From NCBI GenBank assembly GCA_021324295.1, contig JAJPJJ010000088.1, forward strand, positions 24,902-88,901: a stretch of DNA of 64,000 nt. The letters run 5' to 3'. The notes under the pieces were generated by a model. That model ran no database searches, was not told the DNA's origin, and saw nothing but the letters and a program-made list of their open reading frames with translations. Source of the DNA: Bacillota bacterium. GTDB lineage: Bacteria; Sysuimicrobiota; Sysuimicrobiia; Sysuimicrobiales; Segetimicrobiaceae. Made by a program: the position numbers and the translations under genes. Positions 27,637-51,383 of the stretch are shown here, piece by piece (position 1 is the stretch's first letter; each line of letters starts with the position of its first letter).

Positions 27637-27712
27637 GGACAGGGTCATCGTGCGGGCGGCGGGGAGCCACGGCTCCCCGCCGCCCGCGATCCTCGGCTCG
27701 CAGGAGCAGACG

Positions 27713-28831
27713 ATGCGCATCACGAGCATCCGCACCCGCCAGGTCGACATCCCGCTGCCTGAGCCGTTCTATCCGGCCTGGGCCCCCGGACGCGTCGAGA
27801 CCGAGATCCGCGTCGTCTACGTTCGTATCGACACCGACGCGGGCGTCTACGGGATCGCCGGGCACGAGTTTTACGGCGCGGAGGAGCAGTGCGTCGCGCG
27901 GGTCGCCCGGTACCTCGTCGGCGAGGACCCGCTGCGGCTCGAGAAGCACGCCGGCACGCTGCGTTACCTGTGGCCCTACTTCGGCACGGCGGTGTGGTTC
28001 GTCGAGATCGCCCTGTGGGACATCCTCGGCAAGGTCGCCGGCCTCCCCGTCTACAAGCTCCTCGGCAACGTGCGCGACACGATCCCCGCGTACGCGTCGA
28101 CCGGCCAGAACCGCACGCCCGGCGAGCGGGCCGACGACGCGCGGCGGCTGCAGGACGAGGGCTTCCGGGCGATCAAGCTGCGCGTCCACAACGACGCCGT
28201 CGCGGACGACGTCGCGCAGGTCGCAGCCGTCCGCAGGGCGGTGGGGGATGCGATGGCCATCATGGTCGACGCCAACCAGACCGACGTGCACGACGCCCCG
28301 TTCCCGGGCCCGCACTGGACGTACCACCGCGCGCTGGAGACGGTGCGCGCGCTCGCGGAGTATCGGGTGACGTGGCTCGAGGAGCCGCTCCCGCGTCACG
28401 ACTACGAAGGCCTGCGCCGGCTGCGGGCTACGTCCCCGATCCCGATCTCGGGGGGCGAGGTGAACCAGGGCTTCGCGGAGCTGCAGCGCCTCCTCGCCGA
28501 CGGCTGCTACGACATCCTGCAGCCCGACGTGACGCTGTGCGAGGGGTTGCTGCGGACGCGCGCGCTGGCGACGCTGGCCCACGCCGCCTCGGTGCTCGTG
28601 GTACCGCACACGTGGGGCGACCCGCTGGGCATGGTCGCGAACCTGCACCTCGCCGCGGCGATCCCCAACACCTCCTACTTCGAATTCCCGCACGACCCCC
28701 CGGCGTTTCCGAGCGCCGTCTACCAGCAGACGCTCAAGGAGCCGCTCGCCGTCGAAGACGGCATGGTCGCGCTGCCGCAGGGCCCCGGGCTCGGCGTCGA
28801 GCTCCAGGACTGGATCTTCGAGGACGCCTGA
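27713..28831 (+). CDS. Enolase-superfamily enzyme (mandelate racemase/muconate lactonizing family, probable sugar-acid dehydratase).
   Basis: N-terminal capping domain MRITSIRTRQVDIPL... Barrel motifs KLRVHND, EEPLPRHD, and GGE...D. Confidence 0.8.
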   Translation: MRITSIRTRQVDIPLPEPFYPAWAPGRVETEIRVVYVRIDTDAGVYGIAGHEFYGAEEQCVARVARYLVGEDPLRLEKHAGTLRYLWPYFGTAVWFVEIALWDILGKVAGLPVYKLLGNVRDTIPAYASTGQNRTPGERADDARRLQDEGFRAIKLRVHNDAVADDVAQVAAVRRAVGDAMAIMVDANQTDVHDAPFPGPHWTYHRALETVRALAEYRVTWLEEPLPRHDYEGLRRLRATSPIPISGGEVNQGFAELQRLLADGCYDILQPDVTLCEGLLRTRALATLAHAASVLVVPHTWGDPLGMVANLHLAAAIPNTSYFEFPHDPPAFPSAVYQQTLKEPLAVEDGMVALPQGPGLGVELQDWIFEDA

Positions 28832-29166
28832 TCCGGCTGTCGCCCGCGCTGGCCGCTCGAGATGATGCATACGGGCCGGCTCGCGGACCCGGTGGCGGCG
28901 GGCGCCTCGCTCGTGTCGCCCCAGCCGCTGTTTGTCCAGCCGGAAGACGTGGAGGCGGTGCACGGGGGCCGGTATCGCGGTGCTGACGACGCTGGAGCGC
29001 CCCGAGGATGCGGCCGTGCTGCTGGCGTGGGACGTCGATGCGCTGGAGTCCGACGACCCCGCGATGGTCGTGGCGGCGGTCCGCCGCCTGCGGCAGTGCG
29101 CCGGGGGCTCGCGGTGACGCCCGGCGCCGCCCCGCGGCCCCGTGGGGTGGGGTGGAGGAGAGCCGG

Positions 29167-29950
29167 ATGACCGCGGAGAGCCTGCGTGACCTCGCGATCG
29201 CCGCGGCGCGGGGCGGGGGCGCGGTGCTCCGCCGGTACTACGGCGCCCCCGGTCGCGTCGTCACGAAGCCCGACGGCGCAGGCCCCGTCTCCGAGGCGGA
29301 TCTGGCGAGCGAGGCCACGATCGTGGCTGTCCTGCGGTGGAGCCGGATCCCCATCCTCGCCGAGGAGAGCGGCGGCGCCGGCGACGAGTCCCCGCGCCGG
29401 TGGATCGTCGACCCGCTCGACGGCACCAGCAACTTCATCCGGCACCTGCCGTGGTTCTGCGTGGGCATCGCGCTTGCGGCCGGGGACGACGTGGAGCTGG
29501 GGGTGGTGTACGCGCCCCTCACCGACGAGCTGTTCGTGGCCGAACGGGGGCTGGGGGCGACGCTTAACGGCGTCCCCGTCCGCGTCTCGCCCACGGACGC
29601 CCTCCACGATGCCTGCCTCTTCACCGCCTGCGACGCCGCGGTGTGCGGCGCGCCGGCGCGGATCCGGCGCGTGGCACACGTGGCCTCGCGGGCCCGCGAG
29701 CTGCGGAGCCCAAACGCCGCGCTCCTCGACCTCGCGTACGTCGCAGCCGGGCGCGCCGACGGCTTCTGGGAGCAGGGACTCGCGCCGTGGGATATCGCCG
29801 CGGGGAGCCTGCTGGTCCGTGAAGCCGGCGGCGAAACATCCGACTTCAGCGGCGGGCCGCTCCGCTTCGCGCGCCGCGAGATCGTCGCCACCAACGGGAG
29901 GATTCACGACGAGCTTGTGGCGGCGCTATCCGCGGCGCCCCTAGGCCTGT
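29167..29950 (+). CDS. suhB: Inositol monophosphatase family protein (SuhB/ImpA-like). The 3-prime end is uncertain.
   Basis: Contains WIVDPLDGTSNFIRHLPWFCVGIAL. As given, the frame stays open to 30279 with an R-rich tail. Removing one C from the CCCC run at about 29943 gives ...LSAAP-TAG. Confidence 0.65.
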
Positions 29951-30830
29951 GCCCGCGCGCGGGGCAGCAGCCGCCGCAGGTGTGGCAGGGAGGTCCGGAT
30001 GCAGGCGTCAAGCACGGCCGCAGCGGACGCGCCGGCGCTCGACGGGATCACCTCCAGGACGGCGGCGCCCGCATAGCCGACGTCCCGCAGCGCTCCGGCG
30101 ACCCGGGCACGTTCAGGTGCCCCCTGCCGAGGCCCAGGCGGTTGGTATCGGCGGCGTGTCGATGCCACAGGCGGGACCCGGCGGCGCCGGTCGCATCGCC
30201 GATGGCGCGCTCTTCGGTGTTGGCGTGGAAGAGGTCGAGCGTCATGCCGACGGCGGGTGCCCCGACGTCCTCGAGATAGGCGAGCGCCGAGGACACGGTG
30301 GTCACGAGGTAGGCCTCGTATCGGTTCAGCGGCTCGATGGCGATGCGGATGCCCAGGCGCTCGGCCTCCCGCGCCGCCGTGCGCATCCCTTCGACCGACG
30401 GGCGCCATCCCATCTCCCGCGTGGCGATCGGCGAGCGCCGGGTCTCGCCCGACGGCAGCATCTGCACGAGCGGCGCCCCGACCGCCGCGGCAAACCGCAG
30501 GCACTCTTGGACAGTCCCCGCCGCACGGTCGTGTCCGCGCTGGCGAAGCGCCACGTAGTAGTACCGGATGTGCAGGTCGTGCGCGTGGCTCCGGTGCGGG
30601 TTCGCTACATCGTGCCATGGCTGGAGCCGGCCCAGGCGTGCCTGCGGGTCGGACGCCTCGGGCGGCGTCCAGCGTCCGAAGTCGTCGACGATCCCGCACC
30701 GCTCCTCGAGCCACGCCGTCACAAGCGCCACGGCGTCGGTCTGAGAGCGCGCGAGCGCCTCGTGGACGTAGAACGAAACGTTGGGATAGTCGGGCGGCTC
30801 GAACGTGGACGTGGCGGGCAGCTCAAACGC
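29941..30830 (-). CDS. Sugar phosphate isomerase/epimerase (xylose-isomerase-like TIM barrel, IolE/ribulose-phosphate epimerase-like). Apparent frameshift near 30100 and an uncertain start.
   Basis: The 30048..30992 frame contains IRIAIEPLNRYEAYL...LDLFHANTEE...RLWHRHAADTNRLGLGRGHLN. The C-terminus continues in the 29941..30714 frame as ALRDVGYAGAAVLEV..., matching the paralog at 61910. The N-terminal 55 residues of the ORF overlap grdA and are junk. Confidence 0.5.
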
Positions 30831-31290
30831 CGCTGCCCGCCCGCGTCTGCCGCAGCGCCTCCATGATCCCGGGTTTATCGAGCACGAACTCCAGCGGCCC
30901 GATCTCCTCCTCGTACACCTCGGCGGCGATCGCCGCCTTGACCTCGTCTTCGAGGATATGGTACACGGGGAGTCCCAACGGGACTCCGGCAAGTGGTCCG
31001 GCGTAGCTGGGGTCCCCCTGCGTCAGCGTCAGCGCGACCATTCGGGTGCTGCCGGCCGTGGGCGTCCCGAGCACCACCACCATGCGGTCCCGCTGGCCCG
31101 ACTCGACCAGCCGTTGGATGGCCCCCTGCTCCTCCAGATCCATTGCCCCCGCGGACGTTCAGACGAAGCACTGCGTCGTGCTGTAGACGACCTGGCCCCC
31201 GGCGCTCACGGCGCACCGTTCGAGCGCCGGTGCCGGGATCCCATCCCGCTCCCCAAGGGCCAGGACGAGCCTACCCTTGAGCTCCACCAT
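30823..31290 (-). CDS. grdA: Glycine-reductase-complex selenoprotein A (GrdA) with an in-frame UGA (Sec) at 31159-31161.
   Basis: ATG at 31290 after GGAGGA. Translation reads [55 protein letters not shown]...VVVLGTPTAGSTRMVALTLTQGDPSYAGPLAGVPLGLPVYHILE. The CxxU motif and C-terminal block are the GrdA signature. The ORF track shows only the post-UGA part, 30823..31143. Confidence 0.8.
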
Positions 31291-32791
31291 CCGGTCCTCC
31301 TCTCTCCGCGGTGCGGAGGGTATTCCGCTCCATGAGCATGCTGATGCCGTCCCCCATCGCCGTCATGCGCCCGAGGAAGAGGCTGCCCTTGGCGACGAGC
31401 TGCACGCGGCGCAGGGCGCCGTCTGTCAGGCCAGCCACGGCGTGCGGGAGATACGGGATCGCCGAGGCGATATGCCCCTGCGTGGGCGAGTAGCCGGGCA
31501 TCCCGTGCGCCTCCGCAAACGCGGGCATCTCGCTCCGGGCGATCTCGCCGGCCTGCGCGGCCAGCGCGGCGATCACCTGATAGTTGGCCGCCGGGACGTT
31601 GCCGGAGCCTGCGGGTTCCGTGATATCGGGGTTGTGCAGCTCGACCGCGTAGCGGTCGATGTCCGACAGCCGGAGGCCGAGCGCCCGGAGGGGCTCGACC
31701 GTCAACACCCTCGCCATCTGGTGCGGCGCGGTCCCGTCGCCGACCCGGTGGACGGCTGCGGCGTCCAGCCGTAGGATCGGGCTGTGGCCGTCGTCGCGCC
31801 CCACGTCGATGGCGACGCCCGCGAGCACGTCTTCCAGCACGGGGTAGCCCGCCGCCAGGTGCCCGCGGAACTTCATGCCCAGCTTGGCGAGCGAGCCGCC
31901 CGCGACGACCACGACGCGCCGGTACCGACCGCTCGCGACCAGCGCGCCGGCCATCAGCAGCCCGTGCAGCGGCGCGGCACAAAAGGCCTTGACGTCGGCG
32001 CCGCCGGCCGTCCGCACGCCCGCGAGCTCTCCGATGGCCTTGGCGAGGTTGCCCCCGCCGCGCTGGTACCGGTCGCCGACCGCCTCCTCGCCGCATCCCA
32101 GCAGGTACTCCACCGGGTCGGGGTCGTCCACCTCGTCGAGTAGCCGGCGCAGCGCGAGCGCCCCGGTTGCCTTCGCGGCGAGGTTCTCCAGCAGCACCGT
32201 CGCGCTCAAGGCCTCGTCCTGCTCGTGGCCCGCCGCGACGGCCCCGACGGGTCGTTCGTCCTCGTGGAAGAGCGGCTCGCCGCGATCCTCCAAGGTCCGC
32301 GCGATCTGCTGCGCGCTGGCCGCCGGTATCGGGCCGGCGCCCGTCGCATCCGCGAGGCGCGCGGCGAAGTCCTCGGTGAAGCGCACGAGGTTGGCGGCAT
32401 CAGCCCGCGCGAGCCACGCGTAGAACGTCATCTGATCGACGATGGCCCCGCCGGGTCCCCGGGGGCGGGCCCCCGCGATCGGGTGGCGGTGCCAGGGCCG
32501 TGCGATCTCGCGGAGCGCCTCGGGGGCGAGGCTGCCGATCATCACCTGATGCGGAGGGTACGCCACGGCCAGCGCGAACGACCGCAGGCGGCTGCGCAGC
32601 TCGGCGCGCAGGGCGGCTCCGCCCGCCGGCAGCTCGCGCCGGGGCTTCGAGCCGGCGGCGACCAGGCCTGGGACATGCGCAAGGATGAACCGGACGCCGC
32701 GGATCACGACGCGGGCCGGCCCGCGGCCGGCGGCCGGGCCTGTGCCGGTCACCGTGTACGTCTCCGCCGGCGGGAACGGGTCAGTAGTCAT
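31271..32791 (-). CDS. GrdC-like protein (glycine reductase complex component C beta-subunit family, thiolase/FabH-like fold).
   Basis: 506 aa. The Cys-containing block FCAAPLHGLLMAGALVASGRYRRVVVVAGGSLAKLG and its position immediately upstream of grdA support the call. The match is by remembered family features only. Confidence 0.6.
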   Translation of the reverse strand: MTTDPFPPAETYTVTGTGPAAGRGPARVVIRGVRFILAHVPGLVAAGSKPRRELPAGGAALRAELRSRLRSFALAVAYPPHQVMIGSLAPEALREIARPWHRHPIAGARPRGPGGAIVDQMTFYAWLARADAANLVRFTEDFAARLADATGAGPIPAASAQQIARTLEDRGEPLFHEDERPVGAVAAGHEQDEALSATVLLENLAAKATGALALRRLLDEVDDPDPVEYLLGCGEEAVGDRYQRGGGNLAKAIGELAGVRTAGGADVKAFCAAPLHGLLMAGALVASGRYRRVVVVAGGSLAKLGMKFRGHLAAGYPVLEDVLAGVAIDVGRDDGHSPILRLDAAAVHRVGDGTAPHQMARVLTVEPLRALGLRLSDIDRYAVELHNPDITEPAGSGNVPAANYQVIAALAAQAGEIARSEMPAFAEAHGMPGYSPTQGHIASAIPYLPHAVAGLTDGALRRVQLVAKGSLFLGRMTAMGDGISMLMERNTLRTAERGGPDGGAQG

Positions 32792-34118
32792 CGTAACTCT
32801 GACAGCCCAGCCCGTAGTTGTCGAAGTGTCCGAAGATCGGCGAGTACGCCCCGGACAGGGCCTCCAGGTCCAGCGGGCCCTCCGCGGGCGTCCTGATGTC
32901 CGGCCGCTCCTGATCGAGCACCACTTCGTGGCCTCCGACGACGCGTGCCATGCGCGGCAGCGCGTCGGCCGGAGCCAGCGTCCCCGTGCTCACGATCGCG
33001 TCCGCCTCCGGAACGCTGAACAGGAGCGGGGGTTCCTCCGTCCCGGTCTCGGCCAGCGCGGGCGTCATGCGCACGACCTTGATGTCGGACTCGATCGTGA
33101 GGAAGACCGTCTTGATCCCCGCTCGCTCCAGCCCCTGGATCGTCAGCATCACCTCGATGAGGTCGTTGCCGCCGTGGTTCCACGTCACCAGCGCGCCCTG
33201 CGCAGCAAGCATCTCGGCGAGCTTCACCGTCTGGTAGGCGCTCCGCTGCTTGTCATGCAACGATCCCCACCGTGTTCGGGCGACGATCGAACCGACCCAC
33301 GCGAGGTCCGCGCCGTGACGCGCGTAGAGCGCCGGGAGCACCGGGTTGTTCACGTGGAGCCACGTGCACTTGCCGGGATAGGTCACCACCGCGTCGCCCG
33401 TGATCGCGCCGTCCAGGATCTCGTTGGGGTGGAGCAGGATCGGCAGCGCGTGCGGGGTGTACCCGTAGATCCCCGTGCCGATCCCGGGCACCATCGAGGC
33501 GTTGAGCGTGTGGACGTGGACGACCCGCGGCAGCGGCCGCTCGACCGGGGCCAGGCCGAAGCGCTGCTCGGCCGGCGCCGCCTGCCCCCGCAGCGGCGCG
33601 GCCAGGTCATCGGCCACCCGGTGCCCGGCGCCGCGCAGGGCGTCGTTCCACTCGGTCAGCTCCAGGCGGGGCTCGGTCGTCAGGGTGAGCACGAGGTACC
33701 GGAGCGTGCTGTACACGGTGACCGCGCCGGGCCCGGACATGTCGATGACGCTGTCGGTGGCGGCGCTCACGGCGCGGCGCACATGAGGCAGCGCCTCGGA
33801 CGCGATGAGGACGCCGAAGCCGCCGTAGCGGAAGGTCACGCCGTCCCCCACCGTCTCCGGCGGATGGCCGCAGACGCCGGGGTACGCGTGCCCCCGGCCG
33901 GCGACCTTGACCCGCGGCTCGATGATGTCGCGCACGTGGACGATCCGGGCGCGCTCGCCGGGCTCGACGAGGTCGACCGCGACCTCACGGATCCGCGGGT
34001 CTTCGAGCACCCGCGCGCGCACCCGCGCCGGGTCGATCACCAGGCGCCCGCCGGTCCATCCCGGCGGCGTGCCGAACGCGACGGCCTCGACCGGAAACGT
34101 GCCGAGCAGCAGCTCCAT
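32781..34118 (-). CDS. GrdE-like proprotein (substrate-binding protein B alpha/beta precursor family).
   Basis: 445 aa, from ATG at 34118 (MELLLGTFPV...). It is homologous to the N-terminal half of the adjacent GrdB-like protein. Contains GFGVLIASEALPH and YPGKCTWLHVNNP, a candidate Cys self-cleavage/pyruvoyl site. The 1160-aa ORF 32781..36263 is a false fusion. Confidence 0.65.
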   Translation of the reverse strand: MELLLGTFPVEAVAFGTPPGWTGGRLVIDPARVRARVLEDPRIREVAVDLVEPGERARIVHVRDIIEPRVKVAGRGHAYPGVCGHPPETVGDGVTFRYGGFGVLIASEALPHVRRAVSAATDSVIDMSGPGAVTVYSTLRYLVLTLTTEPRLELTEWNDALRGAGHRVADDLAAPLRGQAAPAEQRFGLAPVERPLPRVVHVHTLNASMVPGIGTGIYGYTPHALPILLHPNEILDGAITGDAVVTYPGKCTWLHVNNPVLPALYARHGADLAWVGSIVARTRWGSLHDKQRSAYQTVKLAEMLAAQGALVTWNHGGNDLIEVMLTIQGLERAGIKTVFLTIESDIKVVRMTPALAETGTEEPPLLFSVPEADAIVSTGTLAPADALPRMARVVGGHEVVLDQERPDIRTPAEGPLDLEALSGAYSPIFGHFDNYGLGCQSYDDY

Positions 34119-34126
34119 CGCCGCGC

Positions 34127-35428
34127 CTACGCTCCGTCGAACAGCGTGGGGCCCTGCACGTCGGCCGCGAGCGCGCGCAGGGCCCGCTCCACGATCCGGC
34201 GCCGGAGGGCCCGGTCCGCGGCCGGCGAGAGCGAGGGGTCCCCACAGACGTGCTCGATCTTGACGCCCGGCACCACGCGGTTGGCGCCGGCCTGCATCGC
34301 CAGCGGCGGCAGCGCGCTGATCACCGTCACCGGAACGCCCAGCCGCTCGATCTCTTTGCTCATCGTTGCGCCGCAACGATTGCAGGACCCTCAGGTCGCG
34401 ACCAACAGCGCACCGTGGGCGCCCGCCGCCTGCAGCGCCTGTGCGATCTCGGCGCCGTTGCGCTTGCAGTCCGCGAGGCGCTGATCGTTCCCGGTCGTCG
34501 TGCAGTAGAAATCCAGCAGGCGCGCGAACGCGCCCTCGCGCTCCAGCTCCCGGAGGGCGTCGAGGGGCAGCACGACGTTCGGATTGGCGCACGCCGGCTG
34601 GTTGTAGAAGCCGCCGTGCACGCATTCGAACTCCTCGGGGGAGAGCGCCGCGCGTCCGCCGAGATCGTAGCGGCACCACCGGGTCTCGCTGCACCGCTTG
34701 AGGTGGTCGGGGTTGCCTCTGGGGACGATCGCCCCTGTGGTGACGACGCCGATCGTCGCCCGCCGGAGGTCCCGGACCCCAGGAGCGGGCGGCACGGACT
34801 CGTACGCGTCGACCGGCAGTTCGGTCCGGTAGGGCCGGCCGCTCAGCTTGGCGACGAGCATCGCCACGGCTCGCTCGGCTCCGGGGCGCTCGCGCATCCC
34901 CGGCCGCCGGACGCCGCGGGGGAGGTACCCCTCGCGCTCGGCCGGACCGATCGTCGCCCCGGAGGCGAGCCTGCGTCCGAGTGCGACGATGATCGGGAGC
35001 GCCCGCGCCATGTCCGCCGCCGAGTCCCCGGTGGGAACGATATACGCCTTCCTGAACATGACGACCCCCGGGTTCTCGGGGTGCATGCCTGTGACCGCGG
35101 GCACGCCCGTCTCCGCCGCCACACGGCAGACCTCGGCGCACGCGCTGCCGTACCGGCCGGCGGCGAACGCCGGCCCGGCGACGACCAGGTCGGGACCCAC
35201 GCGCCGGAGCCACGCGCGGACGGCGGCGGCGGCGTCCTCGAGGTGCTCGTTGAAGAAGTTGTCGCCGCAGACGAGCGTCGACGTCACGGCGCCAAGGTCG
35301 CCGAGGAGCGCCTGGAGCAGGCGACCGGGGCCGACCGGGCCGTCGCGCACCGAGGGAGGGACGTGTGCCCGCTCTTCCCCTCCGATCCCGGCGAAGAACT
35401 GGTTCAGGTAGTGACCCACGCGCAGCAT
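34127..35428 (-). CDS. GrdB-family selenoprotein B (glycine/sarcosine/betaine/proline reductase family) with an in-frame UGA (Sec) at 34391-34393.
   Basis: ORFs 34391..35428 and 34127..34363 are one gene read through UGA. The sequence reads ...GALLVAT-U-GSCNRCGATMSKEIERLGVPV.... Total length is about 424 aa with Sec near residue 346, as in GrdB. A hairpin ATCGTTGCG-C-CGCAACGAT lies 11 nt after the UGA (SECIS-like). N-terminal motifs are HYLNQFFAGIGGEE and VCGDNFFNE. Confidence 0.8.
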
Positions 35429-35431
35429 CCG

Positions 35432-36415
35432 TCAGGCCTCCGGGACCGGGACGGGCTGGCCCCCTCGGGCGATGCTCGTGTAGGCCGCGTCGAGCACGGC
35501 GATGCTGTGGAACGCATCGCGCGCGGTGACCGGCGGCGGGGCGTCGCCGAGGCACGCATCGATGAACGCCCGGTCCTCCTCGATGTACCCCCACAGGTCG
35601 AGCAGCCCCGCAGACGGGAGCCGCTGCCATTCGGCATGCGGCTGCTCGCGGGTCGCGTGCCGCACGCGGTCGAGGTCCTCCGAGACAAGGAGGGCATGGT
35701 CGCCGTAGAGCTCGACGCGCTCCTGCGGCGCGGCCCACGACGCGTGGCCGCAGGTGGTGAAGGCGACCAGCCGGTCCCCCCGGCAGCGCATCAGCATCAC
35801 GATGTCGTCGTAGTCGGGATAGCAGCTCGTCCGGCCGAGCGCCGCGACGGCCTCGATCGGGCCCACGAGCCACGCGATCATGTCCACGAGGTGGACGGCG
35901 GTATCGTACATGAAGCCGCCGGAGATCGCGGCGTTCGCGTACCAGCTCGGGGTCAGCATGTCCCCGTCGTTCATCTTCACGTTGGCGGAGAACGGGACGA
36001 AGCCGCGCTCGAGCTCCTGCCGGAGATACCGGTACGCGGGGGCCCAGCGCCGGTTGAACCCCATCTGGTAGACGCGCTCGCTCGCCGCCACGCGTTCCAC
36101 GATCCGCCGGGCGTCCCGGAGCGACGTCGCCATCGGCTTCTCCGAGAAGACGTGGAGGCCGCGGTCGAGCGCTTCGAGGACGACGGACGCGTGGTAGACG
36201 TTGGGTAGGGTGACGAAGACAGCCTCGATGCCGAGGCCCGCGAGCTCGGCCAGATCCCGGCACGGGCGCGCGCCCATGCTCGCGGCCGCCTCGCGGGCGA
36301 CCGTCTCGACCGCGTCCGCGACCCCCACGATGCTGGCGCGCGGGTCGGCCGCCAGGGCCTCCAGGTGGCGCCGGCCCATCGTCCCCGCGCCGATCACTCC
36401 GACCTTCACCGCCAT
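35432..36415 (-). CDS. Gfo/Idh/MocA family NAD(P)-dependent oxidoreductase (inositol 2-dehydrogenase-like).
   Basis: Start MAVKVGVIGAGTMGRRHLEAL... Rossmann fold. EKP motif (FSEKPMATS). Confidence 0.75.
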   Translation of the reverse strand: MAVKVGVIGAGTMGRRHLEALAADPRASIVGVADAVETVAREAAASMGARPCRDLAELAGLGIEAVFVTLPNVYHASVVLEALDRGLHVFSEKPMATSLRDARRIVERVAASERVYQMGFNRRWAPAYRYLRQELERGFVPFSANVKMNDGDMLTPSWYANAAISGGFMYDTAVHLVDMIAWLVGPIEAVAALGRTSCYPDYDDIVMLMRCRGDRLVAFTTCGHASWAAPQERVELYGDHALLVSEDLDRVRHATREQPHAEWQRLPSAGLLDLWGYIEEDRAFIDACLGDAPPPVTARDAFHSIAVLDAAYTSIARGGQPVPVPEA

Positions 36416-37569
36416 GGATCGATCACCACCTTCATCGAGTCGGGCGCGATCGAGCGCTCGACGGCCGCCCGCACCTCGTCCAGGCCATACCGGTGGGACA
36501 CGAACTCCCGCAGCGCCGGGTACTGGCGCATGTACCGCAGCATCTGCCGCATGCTCGGCCCGTAGCTCGCCGGCTCCTCGCCGCCCACGCCGAGGATGCG
36601 GACGCTCTTGGAGCAGAGGTGACGATGCGGGTTGATCGCGACATCGCCCAGGTCCGAGAAGTTGCCGGCTTCGACGAGCAGGCCCCCCGGGCGCAGCAGG
36701 TCGAGCGCCTCCGGGACCACCTGGGGCACGCCCGCGCACTCCACCACGGCGTCCGCCCCTCGCCCGTGGGTCAGGTCGCGAACGAACGCGAGACGGTCCG
36801 CCGCCGTCGTCTGCGTTGCGTTGAGCGCATGGTCGACGCCCAGGCGCCTGGCCATCGCGAGCCGGTACTCGGAGAGGTCGACGGCGACGATCGTCCCGGC
36901 GCCGAGCATACGCGCCTTCATGGCAAAGCACATCCCGAGCGGGCCGACGCCGAGAACCACGAGGGTGTCGTCCCACAGGAACGGCTCGCTGGGCACCGCC
37001 GACATCTGCTTGGCGCGGTCGAGGCCCACGGTGACGGCCATGACCTCCGTCAGGACCGCGAGATCCGGCGGCAGCTCATCGGGGACGCGCACCAGGAAAC
37101 TCCCCGGCACCACATAGAGGTACTCCGCCCAGCCGCCGAACAGATGCGGCGGGCGGGCGGCGCTCATGTTGTTGCCGTAGTCCACCATGCGTTCACAGAG
37201 ATAGTAGGGGAAGTCGTGCGTGCAGTAGTAGCACCGCCCGCAGACCACGTTGGCTCCAACCACCACCCGGTCGCCGATCTGGAGCGGCGTCCCCTCGAAG
37301 TCCACGTAGCGACCGTCGCCGCCGATCGCCGCCACCGTCCCCACGTTCTCGTGGCCCTGGATGATCGGAAACGGAATCGTGCGCGGGGAGCCGGTGCCGC
37401 CGTACTGCGTCGTGTAGCCGAGGTACGTGTGCTTGTCGGTCCCGCAGATCCCCGAGAGCTCTATCTTGACGAGGACGCTGCCCGGCCCGGGATCCGGCAT
37501 GGGATACTCGCGGACCTCGTACCGGCCCGGGGCCACCAGCGTCGCGGCGCGTACCGTGCGTCGCCCCAT
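36406..37569 (-). CDS. Zn-dependent alcohol dehydrogenase (MDR superfamily, sorbitol/threonine-DH-like).
   Basis: Contains GICGTDKH, GHENVG and CGRCYYC (structural-Zn Cys cluster). Rossmann motif GVGPLG. Confidence 0.75.
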   Translation of the reverse strand: MGRRTVRAATLVAPGRYEVREYPMPDPGPGSVLVKIELSGICGTDKHTYLGYTTQYGGTGSPRTIPFPIIQGHENVGTVAAIGGDGRYVDFEGTPLQIGDRVVVGANVVCGRCYYCTHDFPYYLCERMVDYGNNMSAARPPHLFGGWAEYLYVVPGSFLVRVPDELPPDLAVLTEVMAVTVGLDRAKQMSAVPSEPFLWDDTLVVLGVGPLGMCFAMKARMLGAGTIVAVDLSEYRLAMARRLGVDHALNATQTTAADRLAFVRDLTHGRGADAVVECAGVPQVVPEALDLLRPGGLLVEAGNFSDLGDVAINPHRHLCSKSVRILGVGGEEPASYGPSMRQMLRYMRQYPALREFVSHRYGLDEVRAAVERSIAPDSMKVVIDPWR

Positions 37570-37631
37570 TCCGGTCGGCTGCCCTCCTGCCGTGCCCCTA
37601 CGGCTGCTGGTGCTCCCCCCGGCGGCCTGCG

Positions 37632-38759
37632 TCACGGCGCGGGGACAGCGACACGGCGGCCCTCCTCCGCCGCGGCCAGCAGCGCGTCGCACACGCGGGC
37701 ACTCGCGAGCCCGTCGGCGAACGTGGCGCCCACCATCTCGCCGCCGGCGCCGGCGGTGCGTCGGACGAACTCCTCCCATTGGTGGACGAAGGTGTGCTCC
37801 CACCCCAGGATGTGGCCCGGGGGCCACCACCGTCCGCCGAAGGGGTGGTCCCGCTCGGTGACCAGCACATCGGCCAGCCCCCGCGCGCGGCCGTCCCCGT
37901 GGTAGACCTGCAGCTCGTTGAGCCGCTCGAGGTTGAACGCCACGGTGCCGCGCTCGCCGTTCAGCTCGAACGAGAGGAAGTTCTTCCGGCCGGGGCACAT
38001 GCCGCTGGCGTCGAGGGTGCCGAGGGCCCCGCCTTCGAACTCGAGCGTGGCCACCACCGCGTCCTCCACCGTGACCGGCCGGTGCCCTCCCGGCGCGGGT
38101 CGCGTCCGGGTATACGTACGGACGGCCGCGGTCACGGCGGTGATCGGGCCGACGAGGAAGTGCGCCAGGTCGATCACGTGCGAGGCGAGATCCCCGACGA
38201 CCCCGCTCCCCGCGAGCCCCCGCTCGTGGCGCCACCCGTGCGGCGCGTCGGGGTCGAGCAGCGAATCGTCACTGTACCGGGCGCGGAAATGGTACACCCG
38301 GCCGAGCGCTCCGTCGAGAACGAGGCGACGGGCGAGGAGCACCGCCGGCACGAAGCGGTAGTTGAACCCCGTCATCGCCGCCTCGCGCGCCTCCTCGGCG
38401 GCGCGCACCATCGGCGCCGCCTCCGCCGCGGTCCGGGCGAGCGGCTTCTCGCAGAGGACCGCTCTGCCGGCGCGCAGCGCCGCGATGCTGGGCTCCGCGT
38501 GGATGTCGTTCGATCCGGCGTTGATCACGACCTCGACCTCGGAGTCGTCGAGGAGAGCCCGCCAGTCCGCGGTCCAGCGCTCCGCCCCCAGCCGCCGGGC
38601 GGCCGCTTCGGCCCGGGCCGCGTCGCGGCCGGCGATCGCGACCAGCCGGCCCACCGCGGGCGCCTCGGGGAAGGCCTCCGCGTGGCGCCGCAGGGCGGTC
38701 GCGTGGGCGCGCGCGATGCCCCCGGAGCCCAGCACGGCGACGCCGACGACCCGCGGCAC
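37632..38759 (-). CDS. Gfo/Idh/MocA family oxidoreductase (second copy).
   Basis: GTG start after AGGAGGA. Contains VAVLGSGGIARAH and CEKPLART. Confidence 0.7.
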   Translation of the reverse strand: MPRVVGVAVLGSGGIARAHATALRRHAEAFPEAPAVGRLVAIAGRDAARAEAAARRLGAERWTADWRALLDDSEVEVVINAGSNDIHAEPSIAALRAGRAVLCEKPLARTAAEAAPMVRAAEEAREAAMTGFNYRFVPAVLLARRLVLDGALGRVYHFRARYSDDSLLDPDAPHGWRHERGLAGSGVVGDLASHVIDLAHFLVGPITAVTAAVRTYTRTRPAPGGHRPVTVEDAVVATLEFEGGALGTLDASGMCPGRKNFLSFELNGERGTVAFNLERLNELQVYHGDGRARGLADVLVTERDHPFGGRWWPPGHILGWEHTFVHQWEEFVRRTAGAGGEMVGATFADGLASARVCDALLAAAEEGRRVAVPAP

Positions 38760-38767
38760 GGATCCTC

Positions 38768-40045
38768 CTACAGGAGCGCGGATGCGACCTTGCGCGTCGC
38801 GCGGACGATGTCGAACTCGTCCCGCTCGCTGAAGAGCGGGTGGAGGTCGATGTGGAGCGCGCGGCGCAGGAGGTCGTCCGTCCGCGGGAACATGCCCTTC
38901 TCGAGGCGTGCGCACCCCCTGTAGTACGGGCACTCCCACGCGCAGTGGCGTTCCGCAAACATCCGGCGCTCGATGATCTGATCGAAGTGGTGGTACACGT
39001 GCTGTCCGCTGTCCCACGCCACCGTGGCGCGGATCCCCTCGGCGGTAAGCGCTGCGCTGAAGGCGCGCGCCAGGTCCGGGGTCGGCAGGAAGAACATCAG
39101 CGTGGCGCCCGTGTCCCCGTCCGGGTCGGGCACGCGGCGGATCGTGACGCCCGGGAGCCCGCGCATCCCGTCGAGGATGGCGGTCTTGTGCGCCCGCATC
39201 CGCTCGATGATCCAGTCCATGCGGCCGAGTTGTACCAGCCCGATCGCGCCGGTGATCTCGCTCATCCGGAAGTTGATCCCGATCATCAGCTGGTTGCCGA
39301 CGGGGATCGTCTCGTCCAGCTCTTCCATGCGCACCGATCCCTGATCATGGTAACGGACGGCGCGCTCCCAGAGCGCCGGGTCGTCCGTGACCACCATGCC
39401 GCCCTCGCCCGTCGTGATGACCTTGTGGTACTGCAGGCTGTAGGCGCCGATGGCGCCGAGGGTCCCCAGGCGCCGCCCGCGGTAGCGCCCGCCGACGGCT
39501 TGGGCCGCGTCCTCGACGACGTGCAGACGGTGCCGTGCCGCCACCTCCAGGATCGGGGCCATATCGGCGCCCGCCCCGCGCATGTGCACCGGGAGGATCG
39601 CCCTCGTGCACGGCGTGATCGCGGCCTCGAGCGTCGCGGGGTCCATCGTGAGGCTGTCGTCGATGTCGACGAAGACGGGCACGGCGCCCAGGTGCACCAC
39701 GGCGTTGACCGTCGCGACCCAGGTGTACGTCGGGACGATCACCTCGTCGCCCGGCCCGACCCCGAGCGCCGCGAGCGCGGTCAGCAGCGCCGCCGTGCCG
39801 GACGTGACGCCGACGGCGTGGCGGGCGCCCATGGCCGCGGCGAACGCGCGCTCGAACTGGCTCACCTTGTGCAGCGGCCTGGGGCCGTAGTGCCGGAACA
39901 AGCTCCGGCTCTCCAGGACCTCCATGACCGCGGCCTTCTCCGCGTCGCCGATCAGCAGGCCGCCGGGATAGCCGGGGAGGAGCGGTTCGCTGCGGACCGG
40001 CGTGCCGCCGTGGATGGCCAGTCGTTCCCCCGTGCCCTGTGTCAT
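38768..40045 (-). CDS. DegT/DnrJ/EryC1/StrS-family PLP-dependent aminotransferase (scyllo-inosose/sugar aminotransferase-like).
   Basis: Start MTQGTGERLAIHGG after GGAGG. The probable PLP-lysine region includes SLQYHKVITTGEGG. The upstream part of ORF 38768..41158 is junk. Confidence 0.8.
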   Translation of the reverse strand: MTQGTGERLAIHGGTPVRSEPLLPGYPGGLLIGDAEKAAVMEVLESRSLFRHYGPRPLHKVSQFERAFAAAMGARHAVGVTSGTAALLTALAALGVGPGDEVIVPTYTWVATVNAVVHLGAVPVFVDIDDSLTMDPATLEAAITPCTRAILPVHMRGAGADMAPILEVAARHRLHVVEDAAQAVGGRYRGRRLGTLGAIGAYSLQYHKVITTGEGGMVVTDDPALWERAVRYHDQGSVRMEELDETIPVGNQLMIGINFRMSEITGAIGLVQLGRMDWIIERMRAHKTAILDGMRGLPGVTIRRVPDPDGDTGATLMFFLPTPDLARAFSAALTAEGIRATVAWDSGQHVYHHFDQIIERRMFAERHCAWECPYYRGCARLEKGMFPRTDDLLRRALHIDLHPLFSERDEFDIVRATRKVASALL

Positions 40046-41073
40046 CGCCGACCTCCGGTCGTGCCTCGTACGACGAGCTCGTTCGGCAGGACCACGATGG
40101 TGGGATTCACATCGGTCCCACGGATGAGGTCGAGGAGCATCCGGGCGGCCCGCCGGCCCATCTCCTCCTTGGCGATCCGGACGGTGGTCAGCGGAGGGTT
40201 GGTCACCGACGCCAAGTCGATGTCGTCCATCCCGACGACGGAGAGGTCTGCGGGGATCGCCAGCCCGCGCTCCCGGGCCGCCGTGATCACGCCGAGCGCG
40301 AGCAGGTCGGTGACGGCGAAGATAGCGGTCGGTGGATCGGCGAGCGACAGCAGCACGCCCGCCGCCTCGCGCGCGCGCTCCGCGTCGATCGGGATGAGCC
40401 TCTCGAGCCCCGGGTCCGGGCCGAGCCCCGCCTCCGCCAGCGCGCGCCGGTACCCGTCGTGCGTCTCCCGCCCGAACGGGTAGTCCACGGCCGCACCCAC
40501 GAAGCCGATACGGGTGTGCCCCAGCTCGGCGAGGTAGCGGGTCGCGCTGTAGGCGCCCCCCGCGTTGTCGTTGACGACCGCGGGCACCGGCCGGCCCGAG
40601 AGGTGGTTGTCCAGGAGCACGACCGGCGTCCCGGCCGCGATCGTGTCCTCCACCCACCGGGTGTCGACGACGCCGGCGACGAGCACGCCATCGATCTCGC
40701 GGGCGCTCGCCATCTCGACGAACTGTGGCAGCTGCGACGCCGAGCGGAGCGGCGGCGTGATCAGCATCCGGTAGCCCGCCTCCTCGAAGACGCCGCCGAC
40801 CCCGGTCAGGACCGCGCGGTAGAAGAGGTCCGAGAAGATGCCGGTCATGTTGGTGCCCGGCACGATGGCGACCGAGTCCGAGCGCCCCAGGATGAGGCGC
40901 CGGGCGGCGGCGTGCGGCGTGTAGCGCAGCCGCCGCGCCGCTTCCATCACGCGCCTGCGCGTCTCGTCGCTGACCCTCGCCCGGCCGTTCAGCGCCTGGG
41001 AGGCCGTCGGCACCGACACGCCGGCGAGGCGCGCCACGTCTCGGAGGCTCGTCGTCTTCGATCTCATGGGCAC
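40042..41073 (-). CDS. LacI family transcriptional regulator.
   Basis: N-terminal HTH TSLRDVARLAGVSVPTASQALNG. Periplasmic-binding-like core. Its stop abuts the aminotransferase start, so it is the first gene of the operon. Confidence 0.85.
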   Translation of the reverse strand: MPMRSKTTSLRDVARLAGVSVPTASQALNGRARVSDETRRRVMEAARRLRYTPHAAARRLILGRSDSVAIVPGTNMTGIFSDLFYRAVLTGVGGVFEEAGYRMLITPPLRSASQLPQFVEMASAREIDGVLVAGVVDTRWVEDTIAAGTPVVLLDNHLSGRPVPAVVNDNAGGAYSATRYLAELGHTRIGFVGAAVDYPFGRETHDGYRRALAEAGLGPDPGLERLIPIDAERAREAAGVLLSLADPPTAIFAVTDLLALGVITAARERGLAIPADLSVVGMDDIDLASVTNPPLTTVRIAKEEMGRRAARMLLDLIRGTDVNPTIVVLPNELVVRGTTGGRR

Positions 41074-41115
41074 CGGTGTGCTGTGTCGCCTCCATTGTGA
41101 CGCGGGACGGCGGGG

Positions 41116-41134
41116 TTGTCAAATCGATTTGACA
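41116..41134. promoter_or_regulatory. Palindromic operator TTGTCAAA-TCGA-TTTGACA (cre/LacI-type with central CG), in the divergent promoter between lacI and the FAD-oxidoreductase gene.
   Basis: Perfect 18-bp palindrome TGTCAAATCGATTTGACA. The same half-sites recur at 44321 and 61789. Confidence 0.6.
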
Positions 41135-41346
41135 CCCAGCGCCGTCCGCTGATAGCATGGGCGTGTGCGCTGCCGCCGCCGCGTGCGCTCCGCGACCGGG
41201 GCGCCGCGTGGGCGCCCGTCCGGCCCGATGCGCCTGCCTCCCCGTGCCCGGCGCGGCCCCATGCGATCCCCATCCGACGGAGCCGGGGATGCCGCGGTGG
41301 CGCGCGGCTCGTGCGCTGCCATCCCAGGACGCGGAGGTGCCTCACA

Positions 41347-42786
41347 GTGGCGGGCGTGATCGAGGCGGGGCGCGTGGCTGAACCTGCGCGCGAGGTACCC
41401 GTGGCGCATGTCACGGACGTGCTCGTGGTGGGAGGTGGCATCGCGGGCGTGATGGCCGCGATCGCCTCGGGCCGCAGCGGGGCGCCGACGCTGCTGGTCG
41501 AGCGCTTCGGATCCCTCGGCGGCACGGGAACCTCCGCCATGATGAACCTCTTCTACGTCCCCTACGCGGCGTCCCGGGGGCTCGTCCGGGAGCTGCTCGA
41601 TCGCCTCATCGCCCGGGGCGGGGCGATTCCGGGCGAGTTTGTGGTCTACGATCCCGAGCTGTACAAGATCACGGCGCTCGAGATGCTGGCCGAGGCGCAG
41701 GTGAAGATCCTGCTCCACACGCTGGTCAGCGACGTCGTCATGGAGGGCAAGATCCTCCGCGGCATCGTGGTCGAGAACAAGTCCGGCCGCCAGGCGATCC
41801 TGAGCCGCGTGACGGTCGACGCCACCGGCGACGCCGACGTGGCCGCGCGTGCCGGTGCCCCGTACGTCAAGGGCCGGGAGGAGGACGGCAAGATGCGCCC
41901 CATGACGTTGATCTTTCGCATGGGGGGCGTCGATGTGCGCCGGCTGGTCGAGCACGTGCGGACGCACCTCGACGACTTCTCGCCCGATCCGCTCCAGTGC
42001 ATGCTGGACCTCGAGCATCATATGGTCCGCATCTTCGGCTTCTTCAAGCTGGTGGAGGAGGCCAAGGCCCGGGGCGAGTTGTGGCCGGACTGCTACTACT
42101 TCCGCGTCGAGTCCGTGATGCCGGAGCGTGGTGTGCTCACCGTGAACGCGACACGCGTCTATGGCGTCGATGGGACGAGCGCGGAGGATCTGTCCCGCGC
42201 CGAGATCGAGACGCGGCACCAGATGATCCAGCTCGCCGCGTTCGCCCGCAAGTACATTCCGGGGTTCGAGCGCTCGTTCATTCTCGACTCCGCGAGCACG
42301 ATCGGCGTCCGAGAGACACGCCGGGTCCGCGGCGAATATGTGATGACCGAGGACGATATCCTGGCTGGGCGCCACTACGACGACGTGGTGGGAGTCGACG
42401 CCAACCAGCAGAACCCCCGCCAGCAGGGCGGTCACCCGCCGGACGGCAAGGAAGGTGGACCGCAGGACGCCGAGGCGCGGCGGCTCGTTGCCCGCATGTT
42501 CGTCTACGAGATCCCGTACCGCTGCCTGGTCCCCGCGGAGGTCGACGGCCTCCTCGTGGCCGGTCGCTGCCTGTCCGTGGATCACCACGCCGACGTCTAC
42601 ACCCGCAACCAGGGCACGGCGATGGCCTCCGGGGTCGCGGCCGGGGTGGCGGCGGCACTGGCAGCGAGGGCCGGGGTCCCACCGCGGCAGGTCGATGTGC
42701 GGGCCGTCCAGGCCAGGCTCCGGGACCTCGGGGCCGATCTCGATCTGCTGCGCCGCCTCGGGCCGTCGCCGGAGCGCCTGGCATGA
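41347..42786 (+). CDS. FAD-dependent oxidoreductase (FAD_oxidored, PF12831-like). The start is uncertain between 41347 and 41401.
   Basis: N-terminal dinucleotide fold DVLVVGGGIAGVMAAIA...LVER. Contains DATGDADVA and GVRETRRVRGEY. Confidence 0.7.
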   Translation: MAGVIEAGRVAEPAREVPVAHVTDVLVVGGGIAGVMAAIASGRSGAPTLLVERFGSLGGTGTSAMMNLFYVPYAASRGLVRELLDRLIARGGAIPGEFVVYDPELYKITALEMLAEAQVKILLHTLVSDVVMEGKILRGIVVENKSGRQAILSRVTVDATGDADVAARAGAPYVKGREEDGKMRPMTLIFRMGGVDVRRLVEHVRTHLDDFSPDPLQCMLDLEHHMVRIFGFFKLVEEAKARGELWPDCYYFRVESVMPERGVLTVNATRVYGVDGTSAEDLSRAEIETRHQMIQLAAFARKYIPGFERSFILDSASTIGVRETRRVRGEYVMTEDDILAGRHYDDVVGVDANQQNPRQQGGHPPDGKEGGPQDAEARRLVARMFVYEIPYRCLVPAEVDGLLVAGRCLSVDHHADVYTRNQGTAMASGVAAGVAAALAARAGVPPRQVDVRAVQARLRDLGADLDLLRRLGPSPERLA

Positions 42787-42849
42787 GTCAAACCGGCGCG
42801 GACGGCGCCCGACCTCGTGAGCGGCCGACGCGACCGTCGGGAGGCCGGC

Positions 42850-44320: not shown

Positions 44321-44344
44321 GGTTGTCAAAACGGTTTGACAACC
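44321..44344. promoter_or_regulatory. Operator copy 2, GGTTGTCAAA-ACGG-TTTGACAACC, upstream of the SBP gene at 44705.
   Basis: Same inverted half-sites TTGTCAAA/TTTGACAA with a 4-bp spacer. Confidence 0.55.
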
Positions 44345-44704
44345 GAGGCCTGCCGTACTATAATGCACCTACCCCACGGGAGCGCGTTATCGCTCTCTGA
44401 GCCGGGACGGCGGAGCCAGCCCGTTGGCACCTCCGGGACGCGACAACCCATGGCGATGTGCGCAGGCCGGAGGGGCACGGCCCGCCCCGGCGCGGCATCG
44501 TGCCCGCCTGTCTCTCGTTCGCCGCATCCGCCACGCCCGGCGATCGCCCCCTTCCGTCCGGTCCCTGCGTTGAGCACACCGGACCCGCGGACATGAGACA
44601 GCACGGCGGCGGGACTCGCGACCCGACCCCCAGCCGCCGCCTGCGCATTGGCCCTGATCGTGTGACGCCCCGAGACAGCAGCACCGGAGACAAGGAGGGA
44701 TAGC

Positions 44705-46105: not shown

Positions 46106-46176
46106 TGTCGTAGTGCGGCGCGGGAGCCGCCGCCCGCGGGCGGCGGCTCCCCGACGAGGCTCTTCCGGAGCGCGCG

Positions 46177-47984: not shown

Positions 47985-48008
47985 TACGTCGACAAACCGG
48001 AGGGACAC

Positions 48009-49580: not shown

Positions 49581-49603
49581 CCCGCCGGAGGCGGTCCAGA
49601 CCG

Positions 49604-50395: not shown

Positions 50396-50401
50396 GCGAC
50401 G

Positions 50402-51361: not shown

Positions 51362-51383
51362 GGCGCGCCGGAGAGCCCGCGGG

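Follow-up and report, generated by a model that had tools for sequence, protein, structure and literature searches.

A LacI-controlled operon joins a divergent, GrdD-less branch of the glycine reductase selenoenzyme family to sugar- and cyclitol-type genes in an uncultured soil bacterium

The 64-kb stretch of contig JAJPJJ010000088.1 (assembly GCA_021324295.1) analysed here, referred to below as the window, belongs to an uncultured high-GC soil bacterium whose relatives are Candidatus (Ca.) Sysuimicrobiota/CSP1-3-type metagenome-assembled genomes (MAGs). It carries nine intact genes on the minus strand, in the order lacI, degT, gfo1, Zn-ADH, gfo2, grdB-like, grdE-like, grdC and grdA, and sequence together with comparative evidence establishes this array as a functional LacI-controlled operon. 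Sequence comparison sets its GrdB/GrdE pair apart as a distinct clade of the glycine reductase (Grd) family, outside the known substrate types (glycine, sarcosine, betaine, fluoroacetate and proline), and comparison of related loci establishes a conserved association of this clade with carbohydrate-type transporters and with sugar, cyclitol and sugar-acid enzymes. Our best explanation is a working LacI-repressed regulon for a cyclitol- or sugar-acid-type compound that includes an uncharacterised substrate class of the Grd selenoenzyme family, a reading to which we give roughly half of our confidence. An earlier reading of the DNA, made from the sequence alone, had recognised the operon and proposed that its product cleaves the C-N bond of an aminocyclitol or amino sugar; as an observation it proves largely right and is partly confirmed here, and its interpretation is supported in part.

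Gene content of the operon

With a G+C content of about 72%, the window swamps plain lists of open reading frames (ORFs) with spurious entries, and genes were resolved by third-position GC (GC3) profiles combined with frame-wise translation. Families were called with Pfam, and equivalog-level calls were made with NCBIfam models and their own cut-offs. The GC3 and translation analysis shows that the single-strand gene order from lacI to grdA described by the sequence-only reading is real, and Pfam matches were obtained for every family that it had claimed.

The first gene, lacI (40042-41067, minus strand, as for all nine), encodes a LacI-family repressor with a Pfam LacI helix-turn-helix (HTH) and a Peripla_BP_3 domain that reaches no NCBIfam equivalog cut-off. 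Its stop codon is overlapped (ATGA) by the start of degT (38768-40045), the gene for a pyridoxal phosphate-dependent aminotransferase of the DegT/DnrJ/EryC1 family (PF01041, 314 bits). Two Gfo/Idh/MocA oxidoreductases (GFO_IDH_MocA) flank a zinc-dependent alcohol dehydrogenase: gfo1 (37632-38759), for which the best NCBIfam model is levoglucosan dehydrogenase at 286 bits, below the cut-off of 650; Zn-ADH (36406-37569; ADH_N/ADH_zinc_N), a distant paralogue of IolM and Tdh that scores 140 bits with the IolM model against a cut-off of 450; and the IolG-like gfo2 (35432-36415), with 159 bits against the IolG cut-off of 355. The selenoprotein module follows, comprising a GrdB-like selenoprotein of 433 residues (34127-35428; PF07355, GRDB, 408 bits), a GrdE-like subunit of 445 residues (32781-34118; PF09338, Gly_reductase, 253 bits), the thiolase/FabH-like protein C beta subunit GrdC (31271-32791; DUF5940, 180 bits; NF040746, 525 bits, above the cut-off of 450) and the 155-residue selenoprotein A, GrdA (30823-31290; GRDA, 174 bits; NF040748, 175 bits, above the cut-off of 130). 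Gene junctions are overlaps or gaps of 3-20 nt, with the sole exception of 62 nt between gfo1 and Zn-ADH; the tight packing reported earlier therefore stands as regards overlaps and short gaps, and its upper limit of 10 nt does not. An Rfam search of the operon returned no selenium-related or regulatory RNA.

The GrdB-like and GrdE-like subunits form a distinct clade

The selenocysteine (Sec) codon of the grdB-like gene is an in-frame TGA at 34391-34393, set in the motif VAT-U-GSC-NRC-G (U-xx-C-xx-C). Both TGA codons of the operon, this one and that of grdA, are kept in all of about 25 related loci (L-numbered below), onto which the window proteins were mapped by tblastn. A hairpin resembling a Sec insertion sequence (SECIS) element, ATCGTTGC-GGC-GCAACGAT (34362-34380, minus strand), begins 11 nt after the grdB UGA with a perfect 8 bp, and its core CGTTGC...GCAACG is common to Firmicute grdB, grdF and grdH. 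Support for the hairpin rests on this conservation, because the 63-nt segment that holds it, in a GC-rich context, folds no better than shuffled sequence (z = -0.5).

The GrdB-like protein passes the TIGR01918 subfamily model comfortably (466 bits, cut-off 65) and falls below every substrate-specific model: the GrdB equivalog TIGR01917 (429 versus 602 bits), the GrdF equivalog NF040794 (473 versus 800), which is the best-scoring NCBIfam model, the GrdH equivalog NF040795 (412 versus 775), and the PrdB model TIGR04483 (80 versus 300, matched by the C-terminal part only). It lacks the published GrdB and GrdF motifs (PMC9751293), which the positive controls, GrdB of A. noterae and GrdF of P. acidaminophilum, match. 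It shares 40-44% identity with GrdB, GrdF and GrdH, against 47-60% among these three. At 50% identity the clade falls entirely into one cluster of a library with 1.84 billion representatives, and its nearest neighbour is 44% identical. The GrdE-like partner behaves likewise, scoring 166 bits against the GrdG cut-off of 780 (NF040793, a model that gives GrdE 668 and GrdI 345 bits) and 54.7 against the FarE cut-off of 675 (NF053623).

In an alignment with GrdE of Acetoanaerobium noterae, GrdG of Peptoclostridium acidaminophilum and GrdI of Enterococcus gilvus, the SGN|C self-cleavage site of GrdE and GrdG is replaced by TGDA in the GrdE-like protein and by SGSF in GrdI. GrdI and the fluoroacetate subunit FarE have no cleavage cysteines and are not proproteins (PMC10838667). 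Because the canonical Asn-Cys site is missing, the GrdE-like protein, too, is unlikely to be a pyruvoyl proprotein; it resembles betaine GrdI and fluoroacetate FarE in this respect, and the label "proprotein" given to it by the sequence-only reading has to be dropped. Eight residues downstream of the canonical site the clade has a cysteine of its own, Cys251 (PGK-C-TW; window about 33366-33368, minus strand), present in 115 of 118 clade members, with serine in two and isoleucine in one. Sequence searches of solved structures with the GrdE-like and GrdB-like queries gave no match.

The loss of the cleavage residue extends well beyond this clade. Among 132 full-length PF09338 representatives at 50% identity (P0111, P0123-P0269), a cysteine occupies the GrdE cleavage position in only eight; the other 124 are without it, and most representatives have tyrosine or phenylalanine there. 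Most GrdE-like proteins in public data are thus probably not pyruvoyl proproteins, and with GrdE-like clusters mostly devoid of the cleavage cysteine, the substrate range of the family is largely unexplored.

GrdA and GrdC are retained and GrdD is absent

The GrdA Sec codon is an in-frame TGA at 31159-31161 within the motif CFVU (C-xx-U); neither single-sequence nor alignment folding of grdA yielded a convincing or consensus SECIS hairpin. Both GrdA and GrdC score above the equivalog cut-offs set for their counterparts in the canonical complex, and the FabH-type active-site Cys271 of GrdC is invariant with respect to canonical GrdC. The sequence-only reading had called the set complete, which the absence of GrdD contradicts: two canonical GrdD queries found no tblastn match in the window or in the related loci, and the Pfam lists of further loci likewise contain none. 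Its statement that thioredoxin (Trx), thioredoxin reductase (TrxB), GrdD and GrdX are missing from the window is borne out, as canonical queries gave no tblastn match there and the WCxPC motif is absent from all six reading frames. GrdD, TrxB and GrdX are also absent from every related locus examined.

The missing thioredoxin is a weak sign of a novel pathway, contrary to what had been suggested, since distant clade members hold a thioredoxin gene inside the grd cluster (L023, L025 and the P0113 locus). The organism of the window therefore probably uses its housekeeping thioredoxin. In those three cases (L023, 17442-19783; L025, 6309-8368; P0113 locus) the same GrdB/GrdE type is combined with a rearranged GrdA-Trx-GrdC set, whose GrdA and GrdC are 47-52% identical to those of the window.

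The nearest outgroup cluster, P0124, also shows the B-E-C-A order without GrdD. In L042 (JGI 3300038551, 1160-6150), the nearest outgroup locus at 44% identity, grdB-grdE-grdC-grdA without grdD are followed by a gene for RidA, an imine/enamine deaminase, which suggests a wider group of GrdD-less modules. The contigs with the outgroup clusters P0123 and P0124 are short, hold only grd genes and a GGACT-like or RidA gene, and offer little information on substrate.

A conserved carbohydrate-type neighbourhood

Homologues of the GrdE-like protein number 822 at E <= 1e-10, and the 120 best-scoring clusters at 90% identity are all close relatives, every one from metagenomes or MAGs (soil, hot springs). 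A copy occurs in 21 GTDB species, including Ca. Fervidifonticultor, whose phylum Ca. Sysuimicrobiota is the same as CSP1-3, "Bacillati bacterium ANGP1", and MAGs labelled Methylomirabilota/Rokubacteria. Two published studies of the phylum Ca. Sysuimicrobiota make no mention of grd genes or selenium.

Across the related loci the recurrent neighbours are sugar-type ATP-binding cassette (ABC) transporters, enolase-superfamily (MR_MLE), Zn-ADH, Gfo and PF12831 proteins, and LacI. The usual layout, as in L012 and L020, begins with two PF12831 genes, an SBP_bac_1 binding protein, two permeases, an SBP_bac_5 binding protein, a creatininase-family hydrolase, two further permeases and another PF12831 gene, and continues with grdB-E-C-A, MR_MLE, Zn-ADH and Gfo2. 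The order DegT-Gfo-ADH-Gfo-GrdBECA is repeated in L034, where GrdE is 89% identical, and L032 has these genes nearby in another order. All eight shared genes, compared between the window and L034, have a ratio of nonsynonymous to synonymous substitution rates (dN/dS) of 0.16-0.26, indicating purifying selection, and several independent samples yielded contigs that encode identical proteins. Together with the shared LacI operator described below, the L034 order and the wider synteny bear out the earlier view that the link between grd and sugar-type genes exceeds chance.

The most consistent neighbour of the clade is an MR_MLE enzyme of the acid-sugar dehydratase/epimerase type (27650-28831, plus strand), whose closest solved relatives are of the galactonate dehydratase and galactarolactone cycloisomerase types; its orthologues adjoin grdA or grdE in L011, L012, L020, L021, L034 and the P0113 locus. 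The P0113 locus (69% identity) reads grdC-trx-grdA-grdB-grdE-2-hydroxyacid dehydrogenase-MR_MLE and lies beside a sugar ABC system. Zn-ADH orthologues (79-83% identical) are found near grd in L011, L012, L020, L024, L026 and L027, in L024 directly after grdA, and Gfo2 orthologues adjoin grd in L012, L020 and L022. Among the solved relatives of DegT the best match is KdnA (5k8b, 8-amino-Kdo transaminase, 249 bits), whose substrate is a free sugar acid; scyllo-inosose-type aminotransferases are also among them.

Divergent from lacI in the window are two genes for PF12831 oxidoreductases dependent on flavin adenine dinucleotide (FAD) (41347-42786 and 42817-44256, plus strand), orthologues of which adjoin the grd clade in L011, L013, L015 and L032. 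These proteins have no characterised relative, and the literature is uninformative about them. Their candidacy as a TrxB substitute was considered and rejected: no redox CxxC is common to them, their genes do not accompany the clade everywhere, and the FAD-binding motif is their only part that matches any solved structure. A transporter operon follows (44705-53697, plus strand), encoding SBP_bac_1 (44705-46105) with two permeases, SBP_bac_5 (48009-49580), a creatininase-family hydrolase, two permeases and a third PF12831 flavoprotein; in relatives (L012, L020) this block runs straight into grdBECA.

One LacI operator at three promoter regions

The intergenic region between lacI and the divergent PF12831 pair holds an 18-bp perfect palindrome, TGTCAAATCGATTTGACA (operator O1, 41117-41134), which gives definite form to the "cre-like operator" noted earlier. 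Two sigma70-like promoters point away from each other at O1, which overlaps the -35 box of each and is shared by the operon and the flavoprotein genes; the promoter-like site of the lacI-degT...grdA operon is TTGACA-17-CACAAT (41094-41122, minus strand). A second copy with two mismatches (O2, 44324-44341) lies ahead of the transporter operon and overlaps a perfect TTGACA-17-TATAAT promoter (44336-44364). The third, with one mismatch (O3, 61791-61808), lies between iolM and an intact TIM-barrel gene (61835-62686). Three copies of the palindrome were found in the window where shuffled sequence predicts none. All three sigma70-like promoter matches of the 29-45 kb region have their -35 box inside a palindrome, each of the three operator sites overlaps a -35 box, and a scan of 29.9-41.1 kb found no such site within the operon. 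The exact O1 sequence recurs in L011 and L032, again between lacI and an FAD-oxidoreductase gene.

The gene beside O3 encodes a scyllo-inosose 3-dehydrogenase, IolM (60463-61632, minus strand), that matches NF041097 over its full length with 538 bits, above the cut-off of 450. On the other side of O3, the TIM-barrel gene is followed by a lactonase-like (SGL/Vgb_lyase) gene. One operator at three promoter regions, one of them beside a true IolM, makes this a real LacI regulon with a cyclitol component. The regulator itself combines an HTH_LacI with a periplasmic-binding-fold domain, and its operator is a CG-centred palindrome at the regulated promoters, an architecture from which we infer that LacI would repress transcription there.

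Decay elsewhere in the window

Downstream of the transporter operon, in the position that the clade usually occupies, lies a second grdB-grdE-grdC-grdA' cluster that had been missed by the sequence-only reading (53721-57875, plus strand). It is an orthologue of the intact L020 cluster (89% nucleotide identity) in a decayed state, with at least nine frameshifting indels relative to L020 and a grdA that is cut short ahead of a transposase fragment of the IS256/Mutator family (58526-59167). Its decay is real, because the same grdB frameshift is present in four independent assemblies; assembly error was rejected as the source on the same ground. With the decayed copy at the usual position, it follows that the organism has kept the degT-operon copy and lost the other.

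The xylose-isomerase-like TIM-barrel gene counted earlier as a tenth member of the operon turns out to be a degraded remnant (29941-30800, minus strand), diverged in its 5' part and frameshifted in its 3' part. Only its central ~135 residues match homologues (64% identity to L026), the N-terminal third is without similarity, and the C-terminus (GALRDVGYAGAAVLEV) is in another frame, ending at 29941. No gene is called there in the source or independent assemblies, and none is present in the L034 operon, which ends at grdA. The convergent inositol-monophosphatase-family gene at the operon end (29152-30279, plus strand) is as previously described, with PF00459 covering residues 9-259 of 375; no stop follows this domain, and the ORF continues antisense for about 110 codons into the TIM-barrel remnant, which it overlaps.

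Relation to characterised systems

The known substrates of the Grd family are glycine, sarcosine, betaine, proline and, as recently proposed, fluoroacetate, almost all from strict anaerobes. Among these systems, betaine reductase of Peptoclostridium acidaminophilum (GrdH/GrdI with GrdA and GrdC/GrdD), compared here through the Enterococcus gilvus pCR1A cluster, resembles the window module in its Sec-containing B subunit (U-xx-C-xx-C), in a partner subunit without the Asn-Cys cleavage site, and in GrdA (CxxU) and GrdC, with the window proteins 38-40% identical to GrdH and 33% to GrdI. Unlike betaine reductase, the window locus has no GrdD, TrxB, Trx or BCCT transporter, and its genes are ordered B-E-C-A in a LacI sugar-type operon. 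Glycine reductase (GrdB/GrdE) and sarcosine reductase (GrdF/GrdG) share its Pfam families, Sec positions and grdB SECIS core, whereas the window GrdB-like protein fails the motifs and cut-offs of both and the partner has TGDA in place of SGN|C. Of the canonical operon grdX-trxB-trxA-grdE-grdA-grdB-grdC-grdD, as in L031, four genes are missing from the window operon.

Fluoroacetate reductase (FarB/FarE) of Cloacibacillus porcorum provides a precedent for a Grd-type B complex acting on a non-amine C-X bond, and FarE, too, is not a proprotein (PMC10838667). The likeness is limited: the window GrdE-like protein reaches 55 of the 675 bits of the FarE model, FarB lacks the CxxC that the window GrdB-like protein keeps, and FarBE feeds the canonical GrdA/C/D of its cell. 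D-Proline reductase (PrdA/PrdB with the proline racemase PrdF) is alike in Sec-dependent reductive cleavage at an alpha-carbon, and PrdF, an alpha-carbon enzyme, is possibly analogous to the conserved enolase-superfamily neighbour of the clade; in contrast, PrdA is a pyruvoyl proprotein, Prd operates without GrdA and GrdC, and the PrdB model is far from reached. With the Thermotoga-type inositol pathway (IolG-IolM-IolN-IolO) the LacI regulon of the window shares a true IolM equivalog, and the locus also encodes IolG-like, IolM-like, IolN-family (creatininase) and IolO-like proteins that score far below the cut-offs. We know of no selenoprotein in that pathway. Full-text literature searches found no described pathway with the present arrangement, in agreement with the earlier statement to this effect.

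Proposed chemistry and its alternatives

The enzyme probably reduces a carbohydrate-linked acid, and the general idea of Grd chemistry applied to an undescribed substrate of this kind, already voiced by the sequence-only reading, draws support from synteny, regulation and the literature searches. The individual Grd steps follow the established mechanism (Andreesen model). An imported sugar-like or opine-like acid would reach the GrdB-like/GrdE-like pair either as such or once the flavoproteins, Gfo, Zn-ADH and DegT have oxidised or transaminated it. The GrdB-like selenolate would attack the carbon alpha to the carboxylate and displace a leaving group, which could be a substrate-borne quaternary or iminium nitrogen or another good leaving group, without the need for an enzyme pyruvoyl. 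The resulting carboxyalkyl-selenoether would be handed on to GrdA, GrdC would make the acyl-thioester as GrdA is oxidised to the Se-S form, and housekeeping thioredoxin would re-reduce GrdA. An acyl phosphate product is unlikely because GrdD, the PlsX-like phosphotransacylase subunit, is absent, and the acyl group would probably leave as the free acid or a coenzyme A ester.

The dehydrogenases, the aminotransferase and the enolase-superfamily enzyme might prepare the substrate, for example by setting the configuration of the alpha-carbon as PrdF does for proline reductase; alternatively, they might pass the sugar or cyclitol part, once released, to a route of the IolG/IolM type. For the enolase-superfamily enzyme, whose site of action is the alpha-carbon of carboxylates, the role may be to provide the required stereoisomer or to dehydrate the sugar acid that is produced. 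In its boldest form, our proposal is that a GrdD-less module of GrdB-like, GrdE-like, GrdC and GrdA subunits was recruited to carbohydrate or cyclitol catabolism in a widespread soil phylum, where it would act on a sugar-derived acid or a conjugate of the sugar-glycine type and reductively remove a substituent from the position alpha to the carboxylate, with a substrate carbonyl or iminium replacing the pyruvoyl and an acyl-thioester, not acetyl phosphate, as product. We offer this form tentatively, as possible and at clearly less than even probability.

Several observations weigh against our best explanation. None of the sugar enzymes in the operon comes anywhere near an equivalog cut-off, and the cut-offs of the inositol-pathway models other than IolM are missed with 159 versus 355 bits for IolG, 34 versus 245 for IolN and 77 or 31 versus 300 for IolO. 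The sugar-type neighbours vary by genome, with DegT and Gfo1 restricted to the nearest sub-lineage, and the MR_MLE gene of the window itself belongs to a separate, GntR-headed operon. The decay of the second grd copy and of the TIM-barrel gene implies that parts of the locus are dispensable. Cys251 could serve as an alternative self-cleavage site or nucleophile, and if it is a cleavage site, the argument for a pyruvoyl-less enzyme is wrong. Other parts of the genome, outside the window, could carry genes for GrdD, thioredoxin and the Sec machinery. Finally, the chemical steps are all drawn by analogy.

The alternative that survives best makes the module an electron sink, in which an ordinary Stickland-type reductase for betaine or another N-methylated glycine is co-transcribed with the sugar genes to dispose of NADH from sugar oxidation under anoxia, and no carbohydrate-derived molecule enters the selenoenzyme. 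It would account for the canonical character of GrdA and GrdC, for a GrdE-like protein that lacks the cleavage cysteine as betaine GrdI does, for the three NAD(P)-type dehydrogenases of the operon, and for the thioredoxin that distant clade members keep in the cluster as canonical systems do. We nevertheless consider it unlikely, given the shortfall of the GrdB-like protein against the GrdH, GrdF and GrdB models and its greater distance from these three proteins than theirs from one another. Furthermore, no BCCT, OpuA or sodium:glycine-type transporter was found in the related loci, where sugar- or Opp-type ABC systems stand directly before grdB instead, and without GrdD there is no evident gain of acetyl phosphate from a Stickland sink.

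A more specific sub-case of the carbohydrate-acid proposal is the splitting of a conjugate in which a sugar or cyclitol is N-linked to a glycine-like carboxymethyl unit, of the Amadori or opine type. Oxidation by a flavoprotein or Gfo enzyme would create an iminium that replaces the pyruvoyl, the Grd enzyme would remove the two-carbon acid, and DegT with the IolG/IolM-like enzymes would degrade the released amino sugar or inosamine. Its appeal is that it explains together the sugar-type and Opp/opine-type binding proteins, the creatininase-family amidohydrolase and the three PF12831 flavoproteins, as well as DegT, the IolG/IolM-like dehydrogenases and a B protein without pyruvoyl. It is purely a product of chemical reasoning, and it calls on PF12831 proteins that have no characterised relative and, like DegT, are not universal neighbours of the clade, so that we regard it as distinctly unlikely.

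The model of the sequence-only reading, in which DegT and the dehydrogenases make an aminocyclitol or amino sugar whose C-N bond is then cleaved reductively by the Grd-like enzyme, now appears improbable. In its favour are the co-transcription of grd with degT and two Gfo/Idh/MocA genes, in the window as in L034, the scyllo-inosose-type aminotransferases among the solved relatives of DegT, and a true IolM in the same LacI regulon. However, the pyruvoyl-forming cysteine that activates primary and secondary amines is absent at the canonical site, most clade loci have no DegT, and KdnA, the closest solved relative, uses a free sugar acid aldehyde and not an inosose. GrdA/GrdC chemistry requires a carboxyl group beside the reacting carbon; retention of GrdA and of a catalytically intact GrdC argues for a carboxylate substrate, and aminocyclitols are not carboxylates. 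That the operon has no current function, being in decay, a chimeric leftover or a product of faulty assembly, as the frameshifted, IS-truncated second grd copy and the degraded terminal TIM-barrel gene might suggest, is very improbable in view of nine intact genes under purifying selection, identical proteins from independent samples, and conserved Sec codons and SECIS hairpin.

Other features of the window

Three features outside the operon were recorded in passing. A c-di-GMP-I riboswitch aptamer (13304-13397, minus strand; Rfam RF01051, 56.9 bits, gathering score 35) is unrelated to the grd operon. The ARAGORN call of a tRNA-Thr (GGT) at 12303-12397 (minus strand) is unusually long at 95 nt and lies inside a predicted ORF of 181 residues (12184-12729), and may be a false positive or an odd tRNA. 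A phage-type integrase gene (17203-18234, plus strand) is followed by a truncated luciferase-like monooxygenase gene (18392-18931, plus strand) that covers only profile positions 101-225, and the pair suggests an integration scar upstream of the sugar island.

Implications

This locus reveals a deeply diverged, selenium-dependent Grd branch, apparently without a pyruvoyl site and lacking the acetyl-phosphate-forming subunit, that is wired into a LacI-controlled sugar/inositol regulon. The labels "glycine reductase" and "sarcosine reductase" that JGI and NCBI annotation attaches to such proteins are corrected by this placement; left standing, they could wrongly be taken as a sign of the reductive glycine pathway, a route that has come under discussion in connection with this phylum. 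If the proposal of a B-E-C-A module acting on carbohydrate-derived acids is true, it would constitute a "Stickland-like" reductive branch outside amino-acid fermentation. Should the substrate prove to be carbohydrate-derived, Grd-family chemistry would reach beyond the fermentation of amino acids, and a dominant uncultured soil lineage would have a selenium requirement.

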